In this document: positions 29,087-37,252 of the stretch, piece after piece | Layout: every line of letters begins with the position of its first letter | Position numbering within the stretch: the stretch's first letter is position 1 | NCBI RefSeq assembly: GCF_011045215.1 | Contig: NZ_CP049201.1 | Length of the DNA: 64,000 nt | Reading direction: 5' to 3' (one strand) | DNA from: Escherichia coli | Lineage (GTDB): Bacteria > Pseudomonadota > Gammaproteobacteria > Enterobacterales > Enterobacteriaceae | Notes under the pieces: model-generated | Database searches by the model: none | Told to the model about the DNA's origin: nothing | Seen by the model: the letters and a program-made list of their open reading frames with translations, nothing else | Made by a program: the position numbers and the translations under genes

Positions 29087-29596
29087 ATGGCGACGCTGAC
29101 AGAAGATGATGTGCTTGAGCAACTGGATGCACAGGACAATTTATTTTCATTTATGAAAACTGCGCATTCTATTTTGCTCCAGGGAATACGCCAGTTTCTG
29201 CCGTCGCTGTTTGTCGATAACGATGAAGAGATCGTGGAATATGCAGTGAAGCCGTTACTTGCCCAAAGCGGCCCGCTTGACGATATTGATGTTGCGCTGC
29301 GTTTGATTTATGCGCTGGGGAAAATGGATAAATGGCTGTACGCCGATATCACTCATTTTTCCCAGTTCTGGCATTACCTGAACGAACAGGATGAAGCGCC
29401 CGGATTTGCCGATGACATGACCTGGGATTTTATCAGCAACGTCAATAGCATAACCCGCAATGCGATGCTCTATGACGCGTTAAAAGCGATGAAGTTCGCT
29501 GATTTCGCCGTCTGGTCAGAGGCGCGTTTTAGCGGGATGGTCAAAACGGCGCTGACGCTGGCAGTAACGACCACCTTAAAGGAATTAACGCCGTGA
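29087..29596 (+). CDS. yggD: MtlR-like small protein (YggD/FumE)
   Basis: 169 aa, MATLTEDDVLEQLDAQDNLFSFMKTAHSILLQGIRQF. Confidence 0.7.
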   Translation: MATLTEDDVLEQLDAQDNLFSFMKTAHSILLQGIRQFLPSLFVDNDEEIVEYAVKPLLAQSGPLDDIDVALRLIYALGKMDKWLYADITHFSQFWHYLNEQDEAPGFADDMTWDFISNVNSITRNAMLYDALKAMKFADFAVWSEARFSGMVKTALTLAVTTTLKELTP

Positions 29597-30306
29597 AAAT
29601 TGAATTAACGGTGAATGGGCTGAACGTGCAAGCGCAGTACCATGAGGAAGAGATAAAACGCGTGCATAAACCGTTGCTGCGCATGTTGGCGGCCTTACAG
29701 ACGGTAAATCCGCAGCGGCGAACCGTGGTTTTTCTTTGCGCTCCGCCGGGAACGGGAAAATCGACCCTGACTACCTTCTGGGAATATCTCGCGCAACAAG
29801 ACCCCGAACTGCCCGCTATCCAGACGCTCCCGATGGATGGTTTTCACCATTACAATAGCTGGCTGGATGCGCATCAGCTACGCCCGTACAAAGGCGCGCC
29901 GCAGACATTTGATGTGGCAAAACTGGCAGAAAAATTGCGCCAGGCAGTGCAGGGCGACTGTACGTGGCCGCAGTACGATCGACAAAAACATGATCCGGTA
30001 GAAGATGCGTTGCATGTTACCGCACCAATAATCATCGTCGAAGGAAACTGGCTATTGCTGGATGACGAGAAGTGGCGCCAGCTTGCGCAATTTTGTGATT
30101 TCTCGATCTTTATTAACGCGCCCGCAGCGGCGTTGCGGGAGCGTCTGGTGGGGCGCAAGCTGGCGGGAGGGTTATCGCTGGCAGACGCAGAAGCTTTTTA
30201 TGACCGTACCGACGGGCCGAATGTTCGCCGGGTGCTGGAAGAGAGTCTGCCTGCAAATTTGACCTTAATGATGACCGCTACGGGTGAATATCGTCTGGTG
30301 GATTAA
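29593..30306 (+). CDS. yggC: P-loop nucleoside/pantothenate kinase-like protein YggC
   Basis: 237 aa; Walker A APPGTGKST. Confidence 0.8.
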   Translation: MKIELTVNGLNVQAQYHEEEIKRVHKPLLRMLAALQTVNPQRRTVVFLCAPPGTGKSTLTTFWEYLAQQDPELPAIQTLPMDGFHHYNSWLDAHQLRPYKGAPQTFDVAKLAEKLRQAVQGDCTWPQYDRQKHDPVEDALHVTAPIIIVEGNWLLLDDEKWRQLAQFCDFSIFINAPAAALRERLVGRKLAGGLSLADAEAFYDRTDGPNVRRVLEESLPANLTLMMTATGEYRLVD

Positions 30307-30955
30307 TGTTCCTGATTAGACCATCTTCCAGTCGCACCACACGAGAGAAATGACGCCGGGTAAATGCGGCGTCATGACTGATTGCTACGACGCTCGTGCC
30401 TCGCTGGCGGCACTTCTCCAGCCAGCTTTCAAACACGCTCAACCAATTTTCGTCAAAATCCCGACTCGGCTCGTCCAGCAGCAATAGTGGCGGAGAGAGT
30501 GCTTCCAGGCAGGCGACGGCGACCATCCGTCGCTGCGCACTATGCAGATCCAACGGGTGCGCGCTGGCAGTGTCTGCTAACTGACAACATTGCAGGGCAG
30601 CATGGGTACGTTGAGTGATTTCATCCGCCGGGCATTTTTGCAGTTTCAAACCAAATGCGATCTCGTCAGCGACGGTGCTGTGAAAAAGTTGGTTTTCCGC
30701 TTCCTGAAACAGTACGCCAATCTTTGCCGCGCGCTGGCGGTTTTTCAGGTTTTTCATCGCCTGTTGTTGCCGCATAACCGTACCGGCTGTGGGCGTAAGA
30801 AGACCTGCCATTACTCGTAACAGCGTCGATTTCCCTGCGCCATTGTCACCGGTCAGCGCCAACCATTCACCTTGTTTGAGTTGCAGAGAAATGTCGCAAA
30901 GACAATCCGTTGCCGCGCCAGGCCAGCGATAAGATATCTGATTTAACGTTAACAT
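30278..30955 (-). CDS. ABC-type ATPase (EcfA-like) with degenerate signature motif
   Basis: Walker A GDNGAGKST, Walker B LLLLDEP, but signature region reads LHSAQRRM instead of LSGGQ; start chosen at MLTLNQISYRW; 3' end overlaps yggC 3' end by 29 bp. Confidence 0.7.
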   Translation of the reverse strand: MLTLNQISYRWPGAATDCLCDISLQLKQGEWLALTGDNGAGKSTLLRVMAGLLTPTAGTVMRQQQAMKNLKNRQRAAKIGVLFQEAENQLFHSTVADEIAFGLKLQKCPADEITQRTHAALQCCQLADTASAHPLDLHSAQRRMVAVACLEALSPPLLLLDEPSRDFDENWLSVFESWLEKCRQRGTSVVAISHDAAFTRRHFSRVVRLEDGLIRNINPPDDIHP

Positions 30956-31632
30956 AGTGGCTGGAGCGCTCCGTTTTGCAATTGCCACGCTTGCTGGCAG
31001 TAGTTCAGGAAAGGTGTGCGATGACGTTCAAAAAGAATAATCAGCGAACCACGTTCAAACGCCCAGTGTTGTAATCGCTGCAACAGCATTTCGCTGGCCT
31101 GCGGCGTCAGGCGGCTAAAGGCTTCATCAAGAATTAATAGCTTTGGCTGCATCGCGATGGCGCAGGCGATGACCACGCGCTGTGTCTCTCCACCGGAGAG
31201 TGTTGCTGGGTGACGATGGCGCAACGGCTGGCACTCGGTCAGAGTCAGGGCGGCATCAATCCGCGCCATAATCTCTGCTTCAGCAAGACACAGATTTTCT
31301 GGCCCAAAGGCAACTTCTTCTTCCACGCTAAAGGTACAGCCGGAGAGCTGCAAATAGGGCGATTGCTGGACGAGCTGGATGGTGGCGGATTGTTCATTAA
31401 GCGGGAGATGCCCAATGGGCGTACCGAGGAGCGTCCCCGTGCCTGTTATCTCTCCTGGCAGAAAGTCCGGATACCAGCCCGCCATCAGCTGTGCCAGCGT
31501 ACTTTTGCCACTGCCGTTGTCACCAAAGATGGCGACCATCCCCGGTTTGACATAGTGAAAGTTATAACAGAACGGAGGATGCGTTGAGTGTGTCGGGCAA
31601 TAACGGAACTGTTCTAACGTAACCATATCCAC
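30949..31632 (-). CDS. ABC-type ATPase (EcfA-like), canonical motifs
   Basis: Walker A GDNGSGKST, signature LSGGETQRV, Walker B LLILDEA; start uncertain by a few codons. Confidence 0.75.
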   Translation of the reverse strand: MDMVTLEQFRYCPTHSTHPPFCYNFHYVKPGMVAIFGDNGSGKSTLAQLMAGWYPDFLPGEITGTGTLLGTPIGHLPLNEQSATIQLVQQSPYLQLSGCTFSVEEEVAFGPENLCLAEAEIMARIDAALTLTECQPLRHRHPATLSGGETQRVVIACAIAMQPKLLILDEAFSRLTPQASEMLLQRLQHWAFERGSLIILFERHRTPFLNYCQQAWQLQNGALQPLC

Positions 31633-32321
31633 GCTCCGAATTCTGTCAGCATCAGCAAGATCATGGTGTAACGCGCTACGCGTTGTAGGGTGCTATCGGC
31701 TGGTGCCCACAACGTTGTTCGTCGGTTGTGGATCCGAAATGCCCGCATATCCAGCGCCGCACCGCGGACAGCAAGATCGTTTAGCGCATTGTGTGTTAGC
31801 GGAATAATTAACGCGGGCATCGCACGTAAACGCTGATACCAGCCCTCATCCAGCGGCACGCCGCGGGCACGCTGCGCTTCATGAATAATCGCTAATTGCC
31901 GTTTTAACTGCTCAACGACCAATAACGGACCGGCAAACAGATAAGCGACGCCTGGCGGCAGGCGAGAAGCAAACAGAGCGCGGATAAAACATTGCACGGG
32001 GACGTACTGCATCCACAACTGTGAGGTTGAAACAATCGCCAGAATCCGCAACCAGAGCGTAATAGCATGCGTCCAACGCTCCGGCGAACGCGGCGTGCCG
32101 CTTAGCCATTCTGTTAGCCAGCCACCGTGTACCAGCCACAGCCCGGCTCCCAGCGAGAACATCAGCCAGACGACATATTTTGCCCGCCGCCGCGTGGCCT
32201 TTAGCGCAATAAGGCAGAAAAAGGTCGCCGCGCTATAGACTGGCAGTATTGTCTGTGTGGGCAGGATAAGCGTGGTGCAGGCCGCCAATGCCCATAGTGT
32301 TAATGAGGTAAATGGATGCAT
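31614..32321 (-). CDS. ECF transporter T component (EcfT/CbiQ-like)
   Basis: 235-aa multi-TM protein with two Ala-Arg-Gly-type coupling motifs (EAQRARGVP and DLAVRGAAL) in the C-terminal half; directly upstream of two ABC ATPase genes. Confidence 0.65.
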   Translation of the reverse strand: MHPFTSLTLWALAACTTLILPTQTILPVYSAATFFCLIALKATRRRAKYVVWLMFSLGAGLWLVHGGWLTEWLSGTPRSPERWTHAITLWLRILAIVSTSQLWMQYVPVQCFIRALFASRLPPGVAYLFAGPLLVVEQLKRQLAIIHEAQRARGVPLDEGWYQRLRAMPALIIPLTHNALNDLAVRGAALDMRAFRIHNRRTTLWAPADSTLQRVARYTMILLMLTEFGAWIWLR

Positions 32322-32900
32322 TTAGCGCACGGCAGCCATTGCCGGAAAATGGCGCGTGGTGCGAATCGGCAGCTGGCGCAGTAAAAGCCAGACAATCACC
32401 GCTGTAAGAGTTTTATCGACCAGGTTCGCGCCTATCACTGTAATTGCCACCGACTCCACCAGGTTTTGCCCCATCGAGTGCATCCAGGCAACGAACAAAT
32501 CGGCTCCGCTACCGGTGACACCGCCGAACAGCGCAGTACGCAGCGGTACAGCGACGACCGTTACCGCAAGCGTAATAATCACGCCGCTGACAACGACTTT
32601 TGGCAGGGTGCGGAACCAACCCGCTCGCGCCAGCCAACCAGCGACCAGGCCGATGACCATCGCCACGGGCGCAAATGCGGCGGCGATCGGGTCGGTCAGC
32701 AATCCCCAGAGTAAATTGGTCAGTAAGCCGGTCAGCATCCCGATCACCGGACCAAGCAGTACCGCGCTAATAAGTGTGCCGATGGAGTCGAGAAATATAG
32801 GTAATTTGACCATGCTGGCCAGTTGCCCGCCGATCATATTGATGGCGATAGATATAACGATCAACACCAGTGCCTGACTGGAAAAGTGGCTACGCGCCAT
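32322..32900 (-). CDS. Small integral membrane protein, probable ECF substrate-specific (S) component
   Basis: ~192 aa from MARSHFSSQALVLIVISIAIN (ORF-track upstream extension would overlap the PPC gene); 5-6 predicted TM segments; position directly upstream of T component. Confidence 0.5.
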   Translation of the reverse strand: MARSHFSSQALVLIVISIAINMIGGQLASMVKLPIFLDSIGTLISAVLLGPVIGMLTGLLTNLLWGLLTDPIAAAFAPVAMVIGLVAGWLARAGWFRTLPKVVVSGVIITLAVTVVAVPLRTALFGGVTGSGADLFVAWMHSMGQNLVESVAITVIGANLVDKTLTAVIVWLLLRQLPIRTTRHFPAMAAVR

Positions 32901-32922
32901 AAGAAAACCTCTCTGAAAGTAG

Positions 32923-33354
32923 TTATTTAACGGGGGAAATATGCAACTCGTCGTAACCAGAAAGCGCGCAAGGTTGGCGGCTAAACGCCAGTTCCTCAAG
33001 GCTACCGATCACCAGTTCAAGCGTGGTCCGCACGGTACAGCCGGGCATCATATGACCGCCAAGCATCGTGCCGTGTGGATCGGAAACGCAGAGATGAAGA
33101 TGCTCACCACTCTGTTCCAACGTGCCGTTTAGTGAGATCACTTCGAATGTACCGTTCAGGAGCGTGGTGCCTTCTTGCCCGGCATAGCGCAAGGCGATGT
33201 CAGTCAGGCTACCGGTACAGCCTGCAATCCAGGCGGCATGAAGTTGCTGCTGCTGTGCAAAAGCGTGTAGCTGGGAAAAAACTTCCTGCCCGGGGAGGAG
33301 GCGCAGTGCGTAAAAGCGTGCGGAGGAAGAATATGGGTAGGGCAATGTCATCAT
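32923..33354 (-). CDS. PPC/DUF296-domain protein
   Basis: 143 aa; pattern G.FEV.SLNGTL....HLH......G...GGH...GC.V....E.V resembles the PPC (plants-and-prokaryotes conserved, DUF296) fold; first gene of the operon. Confidence 0.6.
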   Translation of the reverse strand: MMTLPYPYSSSARFYALRLLPGQEVFSQLHAFAQQQQLHAAWIAGCTGSLTDIALRYAGQEGTTLLNGTFEVISLNGTLEQSGEHLHLCVSDPHGTMLGGHMMPGCTVRTTLELVIGSLEELAFSRQPCALSGYDELHISPVK

Positions 33355-33588
33355 TGGAGTACTCCGAAACTCGGACGTATTGCGGATAATATCGACGCTG
33401 CATCAGTCATATTCTGATATAAGTCAGGGTTTGTGACGGCACAACGAAAAGATTTTGCTACGCTTATTCGTGATTCTGCAAAGTGGAATAAATTCCACAG
33501 GGGCGGGGCTGAAAACGTGACGTAAGTCAGATATTTGTTTTCTTTGACTGGACAATCATTCCTTTTATTCCACGTTTCGCTTATCCTA

Positions 33589-33603
33589 GCTGAAGCGTTT
33601 CAG
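33589..33603. promoter_or_regulatory. Candidate Cra (FruR)-type operator upstream of epd
   Basis: gctgaagcgtttcag palindrome (TGAA-N6-TTCA core) ~125 bp upstream of epd start. Confidence 0.35.
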
Positions 33604-33725
33604 TCGATTAAATGTTCGACAATTAACCAATCAGTCGCAGTTTGCGACAGGTAAGGTTTCCCCGGACGATTTGCTGGATTACTCTGTCTGGCAAATTTGC
33701 TCAGGGAAAACCTTGCAGGAGATCT

Positions 33726-34745
33726 ATGACCGTACGCGTAGCGATAAATGGCTTCGGTCGCATCGGGCGTAATGTGGTTCGTGCTTTGTATGAATCCGGA
33801 CGCCGGGCGGAAATTACCGTGGTGGCAATCAACGAACTGGCGGATGCTGCGGGCATGGCGCATTTGTTGAAATATGACACCAGCCATGGCCGTTTTGCAT
33901 GGGAAGTACGACAGGAACGCGATCAACTTTTTGTTGGTGATGACGCCATCCGCGTATTGCATGAACGTTCACTGCAATCGCTCCCCTGGCGTGAACTTGG
34001 CGTTGATGTAGTCCTCGACTGCACCGGCGTATATGGCTCCCGCGAGCATGGCGAAGCGCATATTGCCGCCGGGGCCAAAAAAGTGCTCTTTTCACATCCT
34101 GGCAGTAACGATCTCGACGCGACCGTTGTTTACGGCGTCAATCAGGATCAACTTCGTGCGGAACACCGCATCGTTTCTAACGCTTCCTGTACCACGAATT
34201 GCATAATTCCCGTCATCAAATTGTTAGATGATGCGTACGGTATTGAGTCCGGCACTGTGACCACAATTCACTCCGCCATGCACGATCAACAGGTTATTGA
34301 TGCATACCATCCTGACCTGCGTCGCACCCGGGCAGCCAGCCAGTCGATCATTCCGGTCGATACTAAACTGGCCGCCGGTATCACACGATTTTTTCCGCAA
34401 TTTAACGATCGCTTTGAAGCGATTGCGGTACGTGTGCCAACCATAAATGTGACGGCAATCGATTTAAGCGTGACGGTGAAGAAACCTGTAAAAGCCAATG
34501 AAGTCAACCTGTTGCTGCAAAAAGCAGCACAAGGTGCATTTCATGGTATAGTTGACTATACGGAATTGCCGTTGGTCTCTGTAGATTTTAACCACGATCC
34601 ACACAGTGCCATTGTCGATGGCACCCAAACCCGGGTCAGTGGCGCACACCTGATCAAAACGTTGGTCTGGTGCGATAACGAATGGGGCTTTGCTAACCGA
34701 ATGCTCGACACGACGTTAGCTATGGCTACTGTTGCTTTCAGGTAA
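33726..34745 (+). CDS. epd: D-erythrose-4-phosphate dehydrogenase
   Basis: Start at [27 protein letters not shown] (339 aa); GAPDH family with active-site SNASCTTNC. Confidence 0.93.
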
Positions 34746-34794: not shown

Positions 34795-35958
34795 ATGTCT
34801 GTAATTAAGATGACCGATCTGGATCTTGCTGGGAAACGTGTATTTATCCGTGCGGATCTGAACGTACCAGTAAAAGACGGGAAAGTAACCAGCGACGCGC
34901 GTATCCGTGCTTCTCTGCCGACCATCGAACTGGCCCTGAAACAAGGCGCAAAAGTGATGGTAACTTCCCACCTGGGTCGTCCTACCGAAGGCGAGTACAA
35001 CGAAGAATTCTCTCTTCTGCCGGTTGTTAACTACCTGAAAGACAAACTGTCTAACCCGGTTCGTCTGGTTAAAGATTACCTCGACGGCGTTGACGTTGCT
35101 GAAGGTGAACTGGTTGTTCTGGAAAACGTTCGCTTCAACAAAGGCGAGAAGAAAGACGACGAAACCCTGTCCAAAAAATACGCTGCACTGTGTGACGTGT
35201 TCGTAATGGACGCATTCGGTACTGCTCACCGCGCGCAGGCTTCTACTCACGGTATCGGTAAATTCGCTGACGTTGCGTGCGCAGGCCCGCTGCTGGCAGC
35301 TGAACTGGACGCGCTGGGTAAAGCACTGAAAGAACCTGCTCGCCCGATGGTGGCTATCGTTGGTGGTTCTAAAGTATCTACCAAACTGACCGTTCTGGAC
35401 TCCCTGTCTAAAATCGCTGACCAGCTGATTGTTGGTGGTGGTATCGCTAACACCTTTATCGCGGCACAAGGCCACGATGTGGGTAAATCCCTGTACGAAG
35501 CTGACCTGGTTGACGAAGCAAAACGTCTGCTGACCACCTGCAACATCCCGGTTCCGTCTGATGTTCGCGTAGCAACCGAGTTCTCTGAAACCGCTCCGGC
35601 TACCCTGAAATCTGTTAACGATGTGAAAGCTGACGAGCAGATCCTGGATATCGGTGATGCTTCCGCTCAGGAACTGGCTGAAATCCTGAAGAATGCGAAA
35701 ACCATTCTGTGGAACGGTCCGGTTGGCGTGTTCGAATTCCCGAACTTCCGCAAAGGTACTGAAATCGTGGCTAACGCTATCGCAGACAGCGAAGCGTTCT
35801 CCATCGCTGGCGGCGGCGACACTCTGGCAGCAATCGACCTGTTCGGCATTGCTGACAAAATCTCCTACATCTCCACTGGCGGCGGCGCATTCCTCGAATT
35901 CGTGGAAGGTAAAGTACTGCCTGCAGTAGCGATGCTCGAAGAGCGCGCTAAGAAGTAA
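34795..35958 (+). CDS. pgk: Phosphoglycerate kinase
   Basis: Start at [25 protein letters not shown] (387 aa). Confidence 0.95.
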
Positions 35959-36172: not shown

Positions 36173-37252
36173 ATGTCTAAGATTTTTGATTTCGTAAAAC
36201 CTGGCGTAATCACTGGTGATGACGTACAGAAAGTTTTCCAGGTAGCAAAAGAAAACAACTTCGCACTGCCAGCAGTAAACTGCGTCGGTACTGACTCCAT
36301 CAACGCCGTACTGGAAACCGCTGCTAAAGTTAAAGCGCCGGTTATCGTTCAGTTCTCCAACGGTGGTGCTTCCTTTATCGCTGGTAAAGGCGTGAAATCT
36401 GACGTTCCGCAGGGTGCTGCTATCCTGGGCGCGATCTCTGGTGCGCATCACGTTCACCAGATGGCTGAACACTATGGTGTTCCGGTGATCCTGCATACCG
36501 ACCACTGCGCGAAGAAACTGCTGCCGTGGATCGACGGTCTGCTGGACGCGGGTGAAAAACACTTCGCTGCTACCGGTAAGCCGCTGTTCTCTTCTCACAT
36601 GATCGACCTGTCTGAAGAATCTCTGCAAGAGAACATCGAAATCTGCTCTAAATACCTGGAGCGTATGTCCAAAATCGGCATGACTCTGGAAATCGAACTG
36701 GGTTGCACCGGTGGTGAAGAAGACGGCGTGGACAACAGCCACATGGACGCTTCTGCACTGTACACCCAGCCGGAAGACGTTGATTACGCATACACCGAGC
36801 TGAGCAAAATCAGCCCGCGTTTCACCATCGCAGCGTCCTTCGGTAACGTACACGGTGTTTACAAGCCGGGTAACGTTGTTCTGACTCCGACCATCCTGCG
36901 TGATTCTCAGGAATATGTTTCTAAGAAACACAACCTGCCGCACAACAGCCTGAACTTCGTATTCCACGGTGGTTCCGGTTCTACTGCTCAGGAAATCAAA
37001 GACTCCGTAAGCTACGGCGTAGTGAAAATGAACATCGATACCGATACCCAATGGGCAACCTGGGAAGGCGTTCTGAACTACTACAAAGCGAACGAAGCTT
37101 ATCTGCAGGGTCAGCTGGGTAACCCGAAAGGCGAAGATCAGCCGAACAAGAAATACTACGATCCGCGCGTATGGCTGCGTGCCGGTCAGACTTCGATGAT
37201 CGCTCGTCTGGAAAAAGCATTCCAGGAACTGAACGCGATCGACGTTCTGTAA
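36173..37252 (+). CDS. fbaA: Fructose-bisphosphate aldolase class II
   Basis: Start at MSKIFDFVKPGVITGDDVQKVF (359 aa). Confidence 0.95.
   Translation: MSKIFDFVKPGVITGDDVQKVFQVAKENNFALPAVNCVGTDSINAVLETAAKVKAPVIVQFSNGGASFIAGKGVKSDVPQGAAILGAISGAHHVHQMAEHYGVPVILHTDHCAKKLLPWIDGLLDAGEKHFAATGKPLFSSHMIDLSEESLQENIEICSKYLERMSKIGMTLEIELGCTGGEEDGVDNSHMDASALYTQPEDVDYAYTELSKISPRFTIAASFGNVHGVYKPGNVVLTPTILRDSQEYVSKKHNLPHNSLNFVFHGGSGSTAQEIKDSVSYGVVKMNIDTDTQWATWEGVLNYYKANEAYLQGQLGNPKGEDQPNKKYYDPRVWLRAGQTSMIARLEKAFQELNAIDVL

Follow-up and report, generated by a model that had tools for sequence, protein, structure and literature searches.

The window analyzed here is a 64,000-nt stretch of Escherichia coli DNA, in which a 371-bp spacer (33355-33725) separates two divergent operons. 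[quoted passage not shown] The minus-strand operon (30278..33354) comprises five genes, encoding a PPC/DUF296 protein (LmiA), an ECF S component of the CD3073 family, an ECF T component, and two ATPases. Pfam and NCBIfam matches, RefSeq annotation, and a published study (PMC7667037) identified it as O-island 119 (OI-119) of EHEC (z4267-z4271) and the PPC gene as lmiA. The PPC protein also matched PDB entries 2HX0 and 2NMU (E about 7e-75). Among complete E. coli genomes, 5425 of 5426 gave a match and 3329 carried the full spacer. The window was identical to K-12 from about 33556 up to the epd ATG.

This spacer is an already-studied control region, in which Cra and CRP act on epd-pgk-fbaA and PhoP acts on the lmiA-ECF operon, and its Cra box is a genuine, documented site. 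What this analysis adds is the ancestry of the locus and, for lmiA, a second promoter that enterobacteria conserve. Gene content, coordinates, conservation, promoter geometry, and the lack of an RNA family match were established in this analysis. The original prediction had assigned promoters to both operons within the spacer, and start sites are indeed known on each side; the PPC gene has its own mapped start sites, and read-through from elsewhere is not the case. In a simple scan of the spacer for sigma-70 promoters and terminators, no promoter-like site passed, which was uninformative here because the real epd and lmiA promoters both have a poor -35.

Synteny and ancestry of the operon

The operon was located between yggC and epd, or beside epd, in all enterobacterial loci that extended as far as epd, which represent about ten genera. 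It was found beside epd in Escherichia albertii, E. whittamii, Salmonella enterica, S. bongori, Citrobacter, Klebsiella oxytoca, Kluyvera, Leclercia, Silvania, Atlantibacter, Trabulsiella, and an Enterobacter sp. The GC content of the operon was 0.52-0.59, compared with 0.48-0.57 in the flanks. No tRNA or flanking direct repeat was found at the operon boundaries, and no sign of recent insertion was found at the locus; a deletion remnant was present at one locus. The 3' end of K-12 yggC was also considered as an island remnant, which was ruled out, as the yggC alleles were colinear and simply divergent.

A genomic island would be expected to be absent from the same place in related genera, odd in composition, and associated with a tRNA, integrase, or repeats, a profile that this locus did not show. 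Synteny, normal GC content, and the lack of a tRNA or direct repeat indicate that presence of the operon is the older state and that K-12 carries a loss. The operon and its proximal promoter core (described below) appear ancestral to Enterobacteriaceae and are missing from K-12-type strains. Neither the insertion of an island beside a glycolytic promoter, as originally proposed, nor the horizontal acquisition named in the published paper agrees with this distribution. The locus would be better described as an old enterobacterial operon than as an EHEC acquisition, which is of modest practical value for those working on LmiA and OI-119.

The epd promoter with its Cra operator and CRP-like box

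The actions of Cra, CRP, and PhoP, as well as the mapped start sites, are those of the literature and not of this analysis. The primary epd start site is located at 33594 on the plus strand, with a -10 element TATCCT at 33582-33587. Published mapping in E. coli K-12 puts it 132 nt ahead of the ATG, and the epd start site of Salmonella SL1344 is at the same distance. The published epd promoter string, which ends in CTAGCTGAA, terminates at 33594, and the window sequence was identical to it.

The Cra (FruR) operator of epd-pgk-fbaA, GCTGAAGCGTTTCAGT (33589..33604, plus strand), overlaps this start site and spans about -6 to +11 relative to it. The box had been reported as gctgaagcgtttcag at 33589-33603, a location that was exact, with a core TGAA-N6-TTCA that was not; the core is TGAA-GCGT-TTCA, so that an N4 pattern matches and an N6 pattern does not. 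The operator agreed with the consensus gcTGAAtCGaTTCAgc at 13 of 16 positions, including all high-information ones (TGAA, the central CG, and TTCA). With up to three mismatches allowed, the 16-mer consensus was matched once in the 64 kb, against 0.40 expected. Across 15 enterobacterial sequences, the box was the longest near-invariant block (99.2% conserved). It stands above chance because of this conservation and the published binding and start-site data, and not because of sequence statistics alone; on these grounds it is a genuine Cra operator. According to ChIP-exo work (PMC5888115) and earlier work in K-12 (ref. 45 in PMC2759082), Cra sits over the -10 element and start site of epd and represses the gene. 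Downstream, the epd 5'UTR contained a conserved hairpin (33653..33714, plus strand) with arms AAGGTTTCCCCGGA and TCAGGGAAAACCTT, ending just upstream of the Shine-Dalgarno sequence AGGAG (33717-33721). The hairpin was detected as an inverted repeat, and the consensus fold of 14 sequences showed mostly one-sided changes that keep pairing.

A putative CRP site of epd, the CRP-like box CGTGACGTAAGTCAGA (33516..33531, plus strand), lies further upstream. It is centered at 33523.5, or -70.5 from the epd start site, in agreement with class I spacing (near -61.5, -71.5, or -82.5). It matched TGTGA-N6-TCACA at 8 of 10 positions, with the key G and C present; among CRP boxes, conservation is reported to be strongest at these two positions (G of TGA, C of TCA). 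Matches of this quality were at chance level (26 in the window against 26.8 expected), as CRP and FNR consensus matches across the window were in general at or near chance frequency. The box was 87% conserved in the 15 enterobacterial sequences, and its first half is TGTGA in K-12 and most other species examined, compared with CGTGA in the window. The literature describes CRP as an activator of epd that acts in class I fashion, bound upstream of the core promoter, and epd is a CRP target by genomic-SELEX. From the sequence match and these general statements, 33516-33531 is the best candidate for the epd CRP site. On the epd side, transcription thus starts from a sigma-70 promoter at 33594, Cra bound to GCTGAAGCGTTTCAGT covers the -10 element and start site and represses, and CRP acts in the class I manner. 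Control of epd-pgk-fbaA by Cra and CRP is a standard example of flux-sensing regulation.

The published distal and the proposed proximal promoter of lmiA

The published lmiA start site, 90 nt upstream of the ATG by primer extension in EHEC O157:H7 (PMC7667037), corresponds to 33444 on the minus strand. This distal promoter has a -10 element TAGCAAAAT (33452-33460) and a -35 element TTGCAG (33476-33481). Liu et al. (2020; PMC7667037) described PhoP binding by EMSA, DNase I footprinting, and ChIP-qPCR, with a footprint from -82 to -64 relative to the lmiA start. These distances reproduced 33508-33526 on the minus strand exactly, and the footprinted sequence, CTTACGTCACGTTTTCAGC, was identical in the window; the published PhoP box, GACTTACGTCACGTTTT, is at 33512-33528. 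The box fitted the consensus (T/G)GTTTA-N5-(T/G)GTTTA poorly: GACTTA-CGTCA-CGTTTT agreed at only 8 of 12 positions by our count, compared with the three mismatches counted by the authors (PMC7667037). Support for PhoP binding is purely experimental and comes from a single laboratory. By coordinate mapping, the footprint overlaps the CRP-like box of epd. PhoP activates the distal promoter from the -82 to -64 site, physically overlapping this box. The PhoP-LmiA-Ler cascade is a published EHEC virulence circuit. The elements of the distal promoter were diverged in Salmonella, Atlantibacter, Trabulsiella, and the Enterobacter sp.

By homology with Salmonella, a second, proximal lmiA start site would be located at 33378 on the minus strand, giving a 24-nt 5'UTR. 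Two dRNA-seq datasets of S. Typhimurium SL1344 (PMC3293720, PMC3963941) placed the primary start of STM3071 (SL1344_3047-3051) at 3253990, which gives a UTR of 27 nt, with low read counts (2 and 26, then 3 and 3). The 51-nt promoter strings of E. coli and Salmonella aligned without a gap. The sole start-site mapping in E. coli, the primer extension of PMC7667037, gave -90 and counts against the proximal start. The proximal -10 element is TATTAT (33386..33391, minus strand), with no -35-like hexamer. The pattern TATnAT was invariant in 15 of 15 sequences, and the Salmonella equivalent was annotated as a sigma-70 -10 element by the Salmonella study. The comparison across genera argues that the published lmiA promoter is not the only one.

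Upstream of this -10 element, a CRP/FNR-type palindrome, CTGATATAAGTCAG (33414..33427), which is CTGATATAAATCAG in most genera, is centered at -42.5 from the proximal start and occupies -49 to -36 of the mapped Salmonella promoter. It was 96% conserved in the 15 sequences, with recognizable versions in Serratia and Buttiauxella. Its spacing, identical in E. coli and Salmonella, agrees with that of class II FNR sites (-41.5 +/- 4 nt); 19 of 23 FNR-activated promoters have a site in this range, and those of ydhY and fnrS have it at -42.5. A near-consensus -10 element, no -35 element, and a box at -42.5 would together form the geometry of a class II activator-dependent promoter. Against the FNR consensus TTGAT-N4-ATCAA, the box agreed at 7 of 10 positions in E. 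coli and at 8 of 10 in most genera. On a weight matrix built from 63 ChIP-supported FNR sites, which cannot separate FNR from CRP, the scores were weak (6.0 and 7.9 bits; training minimum, 11.8), and 32-91 14-mers of the window scored as well. The outer C and G of the box were conserved where FNR prefers T and A, and may point to CRP or another regulator. The same outer bases occur in the Cra box, but we discarded a Cra reading of CTGA-N6-TCAG, as none of the four high-information positions at the center (A, C, G, and T of AtCGaT) matched. We tentatively favor FNR as the activator of the proximal promoter, because the Salmonella operon is reported to be anaerobically induced; according to the literature, it is anaerobically activated in SalComMac and groups with FNR-activated genes.

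The first 18 nt of the proximal transcript (+1 to +18) correspond to an element, ACGTCCGAGTTTCGGAGT (33361..33378, minus strand), with a palindromic core TCCGA-N3-TCGGA (33363-33375) that includes the Shine-Dalgarno GGAG (33365 to 33362). The element was invariant except at its center in 15 sequences. In Serratia and Buttiauxella, about 110 nt separate it from the start codon downstream, and it is therefore not conserved merely as a Shine-Dalgarno sequence. The proximal promoter core (box, -10, and 18-nt element) was kept in these two genera, where epd is not the neighbor. One copy per locus was found in all 20 enterobacterial loci that included the region upstream of the PPC gene, and none in alphaproteobacterial loci; the upstream regions of alphaproteobacterial PPC-ECF operons had no shared palindrome. 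In the window, the element matched once, against 0.04 expected, and it folds as a 5'-terminal hairpin. A metagenome scan for CGTCCGAGNNTCGGAG, as a sign of a wider regulon, returned 120 stretches, of which only 6 were in the context of a PPC gene and the rest look like chance. The 17-bp binding motif published for LmiA, TTAAAGTCGTTTGTTAA, was compared by eye with the +1 element and showed no resemblance. The element may serve as the operator of a repressor, or as a 5'-terminal hairpin affecting mRNA stability or translation. This ECF transporter is widespread, and the conserved box together with the invariant +1 element offers a way to search for its regulator and, through that, perhaps for its substrate.

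Regulatory readings and comparison with known systems

Two palindromes had drawn attention to the spacer, each of which was present and slightly misplaced. The perfect 10-bp palindrome GGAGTACTCC at the lmiA ribosome-binding site is at 33356..33365, and not at 33357..33366, and is replaced by GCAGGACTCC or GAGGGACTCC in other genera. The palindrome gtggaataaattccac is at 33483..33498 and not at about 33481..33496, with 7-bp arms and a non-palindromic AA center (GTGGAAT-AA-ATTCCAC). Both were exact in E. coli, E. albertii, and E. whittamii, which would suit Escherichia-specific protein-binding sites, such as an IclR/AllR-like operator (TGGAA-N4-TTCCA) by the distal -35 element. The second occupies -39 to -54 of the distal promoter, with the -35 element on one side and the PhoP site on the other, and presumably resembles IclR-family boxes. 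Outside Escherichia, however, neither was kept as a palindrome. At the ribosome-binding site, only the CTCC/GGAG half was conserved, and it belongs to the invariant 18-nt element, so that a palindromic ribosome-binding site as such is not retained. In the 33483 palindrome, only the left half, TGGAATAAA (33484-33492), was conserved and the right arm varied; this half was also kept in E. coli lacking the island and so belongs to the epd upstream region, an older and different element that accounts for its conservation. The same left half forms an inverted repeat with TTTATTCCACGTT at 33564-33576. Nor is the chance expectation small. Two perfect 10-bp palindromes were observed in the spacer against 0.36 per shuffle, and 5% of shuffles reached two; inverted repeats with 7-bp arms and a spacer of at most 4 were expected at 0.12, with at least one in 9.5% of shuffles. 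Neither palindrome clearly exceeds chance, and both probably arose by chance; an Escherichia-specific role for them seems improbable.

The long conserved stretch upstream of the PPC gene could also suggest a minus-strand riboswitch or other structured leader RNA controlling the ECF operon, since many ECF (vitamin) transporters of Firmicutes are riboswitch-controlled. An Rfam scan of 33200-33900 on both strands (E <= 10) found no riboswitch and only two sub-threshold chance matches, to a snoRNA (16 bits against a gathering score of 64) and to a thermometer on the epd side. The 105-nt distal lmiA leader folded no better than its shuffles (z = -0.09), and folding of both lmiA leaders showed no excess stability. 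In addition, the conserved proximal 5'UTR is only 24-27 nt long, and the conserved blocks coincide with promoter elements. Control by a leader RNA is accordingly very improbable. A class II site for cAMP-CRP instead of FNR, which would place the ECF operon under catabolite control from its own promoter, deserves more weight, although we still consider it unlikely. The proximal CTGA-N6-TCAG box retains both of the most conserved CRP positions (G of TGA, C of TCA), the epd CRP-like box itself has a TCAG half-site and the same score on the FNR matrix, and class II geometry suits either protein. Both half-sites, however, depart from GTGA/TCAC, and the position at which they deviate is one that distinguishes CRP from FNR; the only expression clue, moreover, is the anaerobic induction in Salmonella.

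According to the original prediction, an island inserted next to this promoter could come under carbon-flux regulation; the ECF operon would then share the Cra and CRP elements of epd. The operons are divergent and 371 bp apart, the locus is called horizontally acquired in the published paper, and the PhoP site of the distal promoter overlaps the epd CRP-like box, so that CRP and PhoP could compete and give some catabolite input. Against this, the Cra box covers the start site of epd, and the distance from it down to the lmiA starts is about 150 bp (distal) and 216 bp (proximal), which makes coupling to Cra unlikely. By coordinate arithmetic, the CRP-like box is centered at -79.5 relative to the distal lmiA start and at -145.5 relative to the proximal one, neither of which is a standard class I position. 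Further, the arrangement is common to enterobacterial genera, with normal GC content and without marks of insertion, and the core of the ECF promoter persists where epd is absent. Such shared control is doubtful. The overall picture is quite probably one of two largely separate promoter systems that meet at one shared upstream site.

As a tentative joint reading, which we regard as possible and no stronger, the OI-119 operon would be ancestral, and its original control would consist of the class II CRP/FNR-type box and the 18-nt element ACGTCCGAGnnTCGGAGT at +1, recognized by a regulator, to which the distal PhoP promoter was added later. What is proposed here for the 18-nt element, for the activator, and for the activity of the proximal promoter in E. 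coli is read from sequence and from homology. The regulator of the 18-nt element would be the PPC/DUF296 protein itself or a sensor of the transporter substrate, the PhoP-dependent distal promoter would be a later addition in part of the family, and the change from TGTGA to CGTGA in the CRP-like box (on the other strand, from CACATTTT to CACGTTTT) would have improved a PhoP half-site. If this is true, CRP and PhoP would compete at one site common to a glycolytic operon and a virulence regulator. The position of the PhoP site atop the likely CRP site of epd predicts cross-talk between Mg2+ and carbon signals.

Compared with known systems, the epd side is that of K-12, with the same Cra box, consensus match, and placement over the -10 element and start site; the K-12 and island-carrying alleles differ upstream of the Cra box, in the change from TGTGA to CGTGA. 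The distal lmiA promoter is at the same locus as that of EHEC (PMC7667037), with an identical footprint sequence. The available text of that paper describes only the -90 start and calls the island horizontally acquired, whereas here the locus is syntenic across genera, the published promoter is followed downstream by a second that is better conserved, and the PhoP site shares bases with the CRP-like box of epd. The promoter of Salmonella STM3071 belongs to an orthologous operon beside epd and has the same -10 element, box, and +1 element; Salmonella differs in having no distal promoter elements and poorer half-sites of the PhoP box, and use of the corresponding start in E. coli is presumed from it. 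Finally, like class II FNR- or CRP-dependent promoters such as those of narG, nirB, dmsA, ydhY, and fnrS, the proximal promoter has a TGA-N6-TCA box, here centered at -42.5, a good -10 element, and no -35 element, but its half-sites are CTGAT/ATCAG, and not the TTGAT/ATCAA or GTGA/TCAC of class II FNR and CRP promoters, and the matrix score is weak.

The lmiA-ECF locus and its ancestry

In the RefSeq annotation of identical or near-identical strains, the 371-bp spacer (33355 to 33725) separated a five-gene operon on the minus strand from epd (33726 to 34745), pgk (34795 to 35958), and fbaA (36173 to 37252) on the plus strand. The operon comprised lmiA, encoding a PPC/DUF296 protein (PF03479; 32923 to 33354), and genes for a CD3073-type ECF S component (32322 to 32900), the T component (31614 to 32321), and two ABC ATPases (30949 to 31626 and 30278 to 30955); the first two assignments were confirmed by Pfam and NCBIfam. 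A yggC-type kinase (29593 to 30306) and fumE (29087 to 29596), both on the plus strand, lay beyond it. The operon has already been published as O-island 119 of EHEC O157:H7 (z4267-z4271, 3.12 kb), and that paper describes Z4267 (LmiA) as a DUF296 protein and activator of ler and the LEE (PMC7667037). Within the S-component gene, the segment 32467 to 32484 (plus strand) was homologous to a sigma-54 binding site described inside the Salmonella STM3072 gene (TGGCCCATTGAATGCATC); it reads TGCCCCATCGAGTGCATC in E. coli, and the -24 GG is gone.

The original prediction regarded the operon as an inserted island, which the comparison of loci did not bear out. The PPC protein was searched against one genome per species, and contigs of homologues were fetched. 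The same five genes were found beside epd in E. albertii, E. whittamii, Salmonella enterica, S. bongori, Citrobacter koseri, C. freundii, Klebsiella oxytoca, Kluyvera, Leclercia, Silvania, Atlantibacter, Trabulsiella, and Enterobacter sp., and the opposite flank consisted of yggC and fumE in seven of the loci that extended far enough to reach it, including Citrobacter sp. Cu233. The GC content of the operon was unremarkable, and neither a tRNA at the locus nor a direct repeat at its boundaries was found. By parsimony, this synteny, the normal GC content, and the lack of insertion marks argue that presence of the operon is the older state and that the locus is ancestral.

The spacer was matched in 5425 of 5426 complete E. 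coli genomes, over all 371 bp in 3329; in the remaining matching genomes, homology began only at about 33505 to 33525 and continued onward. Homology in island-less, K-12-type alleles reached leftward to TGGAATAAA (33484 to 33492). The yggC-type kinase and its counterpart in an island-less E. coli locus (L002:2212-2925) were colinear and of equal length, with 82% amino acid identity and divergence mostly in the C-terminal third. This divergent allele marks the island-less state as a distinct haplotype rather than a clean excision; the K-12-type absence may stem from deletion or from import of a diverged haplotype. An internal deletion remnant was present in Escherichia sp. E1V33 (L021:4001-4294), in which PPC codons 1 to 27 lead straight into the C-terminal part of the last ATPase gene (residues 149-236), and the entire spacer with both lmiA promoters is retained. 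Further, in five alphaproteobacterial or proteobacterial loci (L013-L016, L019; Aestuariivirga, Rhizobiales, Paracoccus, and a proteobacterial MAG), a PPC/DUF296 gene was followed by ECF S component and ATPase genes, with the T component where detected, and the PPC protein appears to be linked to this ECF transporter well beyond Enterobacteriaceae.

Elsewhere in the window, a cluster for D-glucosaminate utilisation (dagR, a mannose-family PTS, and dgaE/dagF; 14239 to 21555, between speB and loiP), presumably absent from K-12, contained a perfect CRP consensus (TGTGAAGCAAATCACA, 15052 to 15067) within the dagR coding sequence.

The epd promoter

A divergent control region with promoters for both operons, as originally predicted, is real and already in the literature. 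All three predicted motifs were found in the spacer, the Cra-like box exactly where predicted and the other two displaced by 1-2 nt; pattern scans gave the core of the former as TGAA-N4-TTCA instead of TGAA-N6-TTCA. The 16-mer Cra consensus with up to three mismatches was matched once in 64 kb (0.40 expected), while perfect 10-bp palindromes and inverted repeats with 7-bp arms were expected 0.36 and 0.12 times per spacer shuffle, respectively; by sequence statistics alone, none of the three was compelling. Neither the palindrome at 33483 to 33498 nor that at 33356 to 33365 was preserved as such outside Escherichia in the 15-sequence enterobacterial alignment. Conservation of the former was limited to its TGGAATAAA half, and of the latter, proposed as a palindromic ribosome-binding site, only the CTCC half was kept, as part of an 18-nt element (33361 to 33378); a functional role for the palindromic form of this ribosome-binding site is not supported.

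The Cra-like box is a genuine Cra operator that had been described previously. The K-12 epd start site has been mapped 132 nt upstream of the ATG (promoter string ACATTCCTTTTATTCCACGTTTCGCTTATCCTAGCTGAA), an identical -132 site was found by Salmonella dRNA-seq, and control by Crp and Cra has been reported; the start site corresponds to 33594, within the box. ChIP-exo work placed Cra over the -10 box and start site and CRP upstream in a class I arrangement, with Cra overriding CRP (PMC5888115). The window box, GCTGAAGCGTTTCAGT, matched all high-information positions of the published motif (ctgaAtCGaTtcag / gcTGAAtCGaTTCAgc), the window was identical to a K-12-type strain from 33556 to the epd ATG, and the Cra 16-mer was the longest invariant block of the alignment (99.2%). 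The epd side is established biology. The best CRP-like box, CGTGACGTAAGTCAGA (33516 to 33531), was centred at -70.5 from the epd start site and carries TGTGA in K-12 and most other species examined; since CRP consensus matches of this grade occurred at chance frequency in the window, its assignment to CRP is putative.

An inverted repeat (AAAGTGGAATAAA / TTTATTCCACGTT, 33480 to 33492 and 33564 to 33576, arms 71 nt apart) flanked the CRP/PhoP site. Its core, GGAATAAA...TTTATTCC, was invariant in all genera and also present in island-less E. coli, and the 33564 to 33576 arm falls within the epd promoter spacer (-30 to -18); the repeat matches no regulator known to us. The epd 5'UTR contained a conserved hairpin (33653 to 33714; arms AAGGTTTCCCCGGA and TCAGGGAAAACCTT) ending directly 5' of the Shine-Dalgarno sequence, and a small upstream hairpin formed by TCGCAGTTTGCGA (33635 to 33647), with mainly one-sided compensations in a consensus fold of 14 sequences. 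The epd mRNA is known for poor translation and processing, to which these hairpins may be linked. A further secondary epd start, at -34, was listed in the Salmonella start-site table.

The distal lmiA promoter and the PhoP site

In PMC7667037, primer extension in EHEC put the start of lmiA transcription 90 nt 5' of the ATG, with -35 TTGCAG, -10 TAGCAAAAT, and a PhoP footprint on CTTACGTCACGTTTTCAGC (-82 to -64). These distances fit the window exactly, placing the start site at 33444 and the footprint at 33508 to 33526, which therefore overlaps the epd CRP-like box; the accessible part of PMC7667037 makes no mention of this overlap. The promoter block (33445 to 33482) was conserved in 10 of the 15 sequences and diverged in Salmonella, Atlantibacter, Trabulsiella, and Enterobacter sp. 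The CRP half-site is CGTGA instead of TGTGA in E. coli and E. albertii, which on the lmiA strand changes CACATTTT to CACGTTTT, nearer to the PhoP half-site, and this improvement hints that PhoP control may have arisen within Escherichia. Competition between CRP and PhoP is also predicted.

The proposed coupling of the operon to carbon flux was not supported, with the Cra box on the epd start site and distant from both lmiA start sites. The CRP-like box was centred at -79.5 from the distal and -145.5 from the proximal lmiA start site, and because of these positions direct control of lmiA by Cra or CRP through these sites is unlikely. The PhoP/CRP overlap is the sole real contact point between epd and lmiA control. 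No riboswitch was detected: Rfam (33200 to 33900, both strands, E ≤ 10) gave no meaningful match, and the 105-nt distal leader had a z of -0.09 against its shuffles.

A probable proximal lmiA promoter

In the 15-sequence alignment, three conspicuous elements lay on the lmiA side: ACTCCGArACTCGGACGT (33361 to 33378), AT.ATA (TATnAT on the minus strand; 33386 to 33391), and CTGAT.TA.ATCAG (33414 to 33427). Besides the EHEC site at -90, a PPC-gene start has been mapped by dRNA-seq in Salmonella SL1344, where STM3071 (operon SL1344_3047-3051) has its primary start at 3253990, with a 27-nt 5'UTR and promoter string ACTGATTTATATCAGAAAGCGCTGTCGCCAGCGTCTATATTATCAGCGCCA; it was repeated in a second dataset (PMC3293720, PMC3963941). 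The E. coli string CCTGACTTATATCAGAATATGACTGATGCAGCGTCGATATTATCCGCAATA aligned to it without gaps, which places the proximal +1 at 33378, the A of ACGTCCGAG. The -10 then lies at -13 to -8 and the CTGAT palindrome at -49 to -36 (centre -42.5), and no -35-like hexamer was found in this promoter, whose architecture is, judged from sequence, that of a class II activator-dependent promoter. The STM3071 start had 2 reads in wild type versus 26 in ppGpp0 (relA spoT) in early stationary phase, and 3 in each in late stationary phase. A ppGpp effect may be at work here, but the counts are very low. A weak secondary epd-strand start in SL1344 (3253938, about 33431, plus strand, 295 nt upstream of epd) adjoins the CTGAT-N4-ATCAG box, divergent from and overlapping the proximal promoter.

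The ECF operon does not adjoin epd in Serratia sp. (where its neighbours are arsRBC) or in Buttiauxella noackiae, yet both retained the box, ACGTCCGAGGTTCGGAGT, and a TATGAT or TATTAT hexamer, which argues that this module belongs to the ECF operon and not to epd. In both, the 18-nt element preceded the start codon by about 110 nt, so ribosome binding alone does not explain its conservation. Its core, TCCGA-N3-TCGGA, occurred once in each of 20 enterobacterial loci covering the PPC upstream region and once in the window (0.04 expected); the core was absent from all alphaproteobacterial PPC-ECF loci examined, as was the 18-nt element from L013-L016 and L019, and a metagenome scan gave no further recurring context. 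As RNA, the element folded into a 5'-terminal hairpin, ((.(((((...))))))), that takes in the GGA of the Shine-Dalgarno sequence; as DNA, it is palindromic from +4 to +16, where repressors typically bind. The stem showed no variation, so covariation cannot discriminate between RNA hairpin and DNA operator. This promoter with its candidate regulators, the ancestral status of O-island 119, and the PhoP/CRP overlap are new and of modest interest.

The box at 33414 to 33427 was scored with an FNR weight matrix derived from 63 ChIP-supported sites (training minimum 11.8 bits). Its E. coli version reached 6.0 bits and that of most genera 7.9 bits, equal to the epd CRP-like box on this matrix, and the box has a conserved outer C and G in place of the T and A preferred by FNR. 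A Cra site was rejected, with mismatches at all central high-information positions. Given the weak score, the conserved outer bases, and the failed Cra reading, we call it a CRP/FNR-family box; FNR is a tentative candidate, CRP an improbable one, and otherwise something else would bind there. Of the promoters directly activated by FNR, 19 of 23 carry their site at -41.5 ± 4 nt, with ydhY and fnrS at -42.5, and a 2024 paper grouped the five-gene Salmonella ECF operon, anaerobically activated according to SalComMac, with FNR-activated genes.
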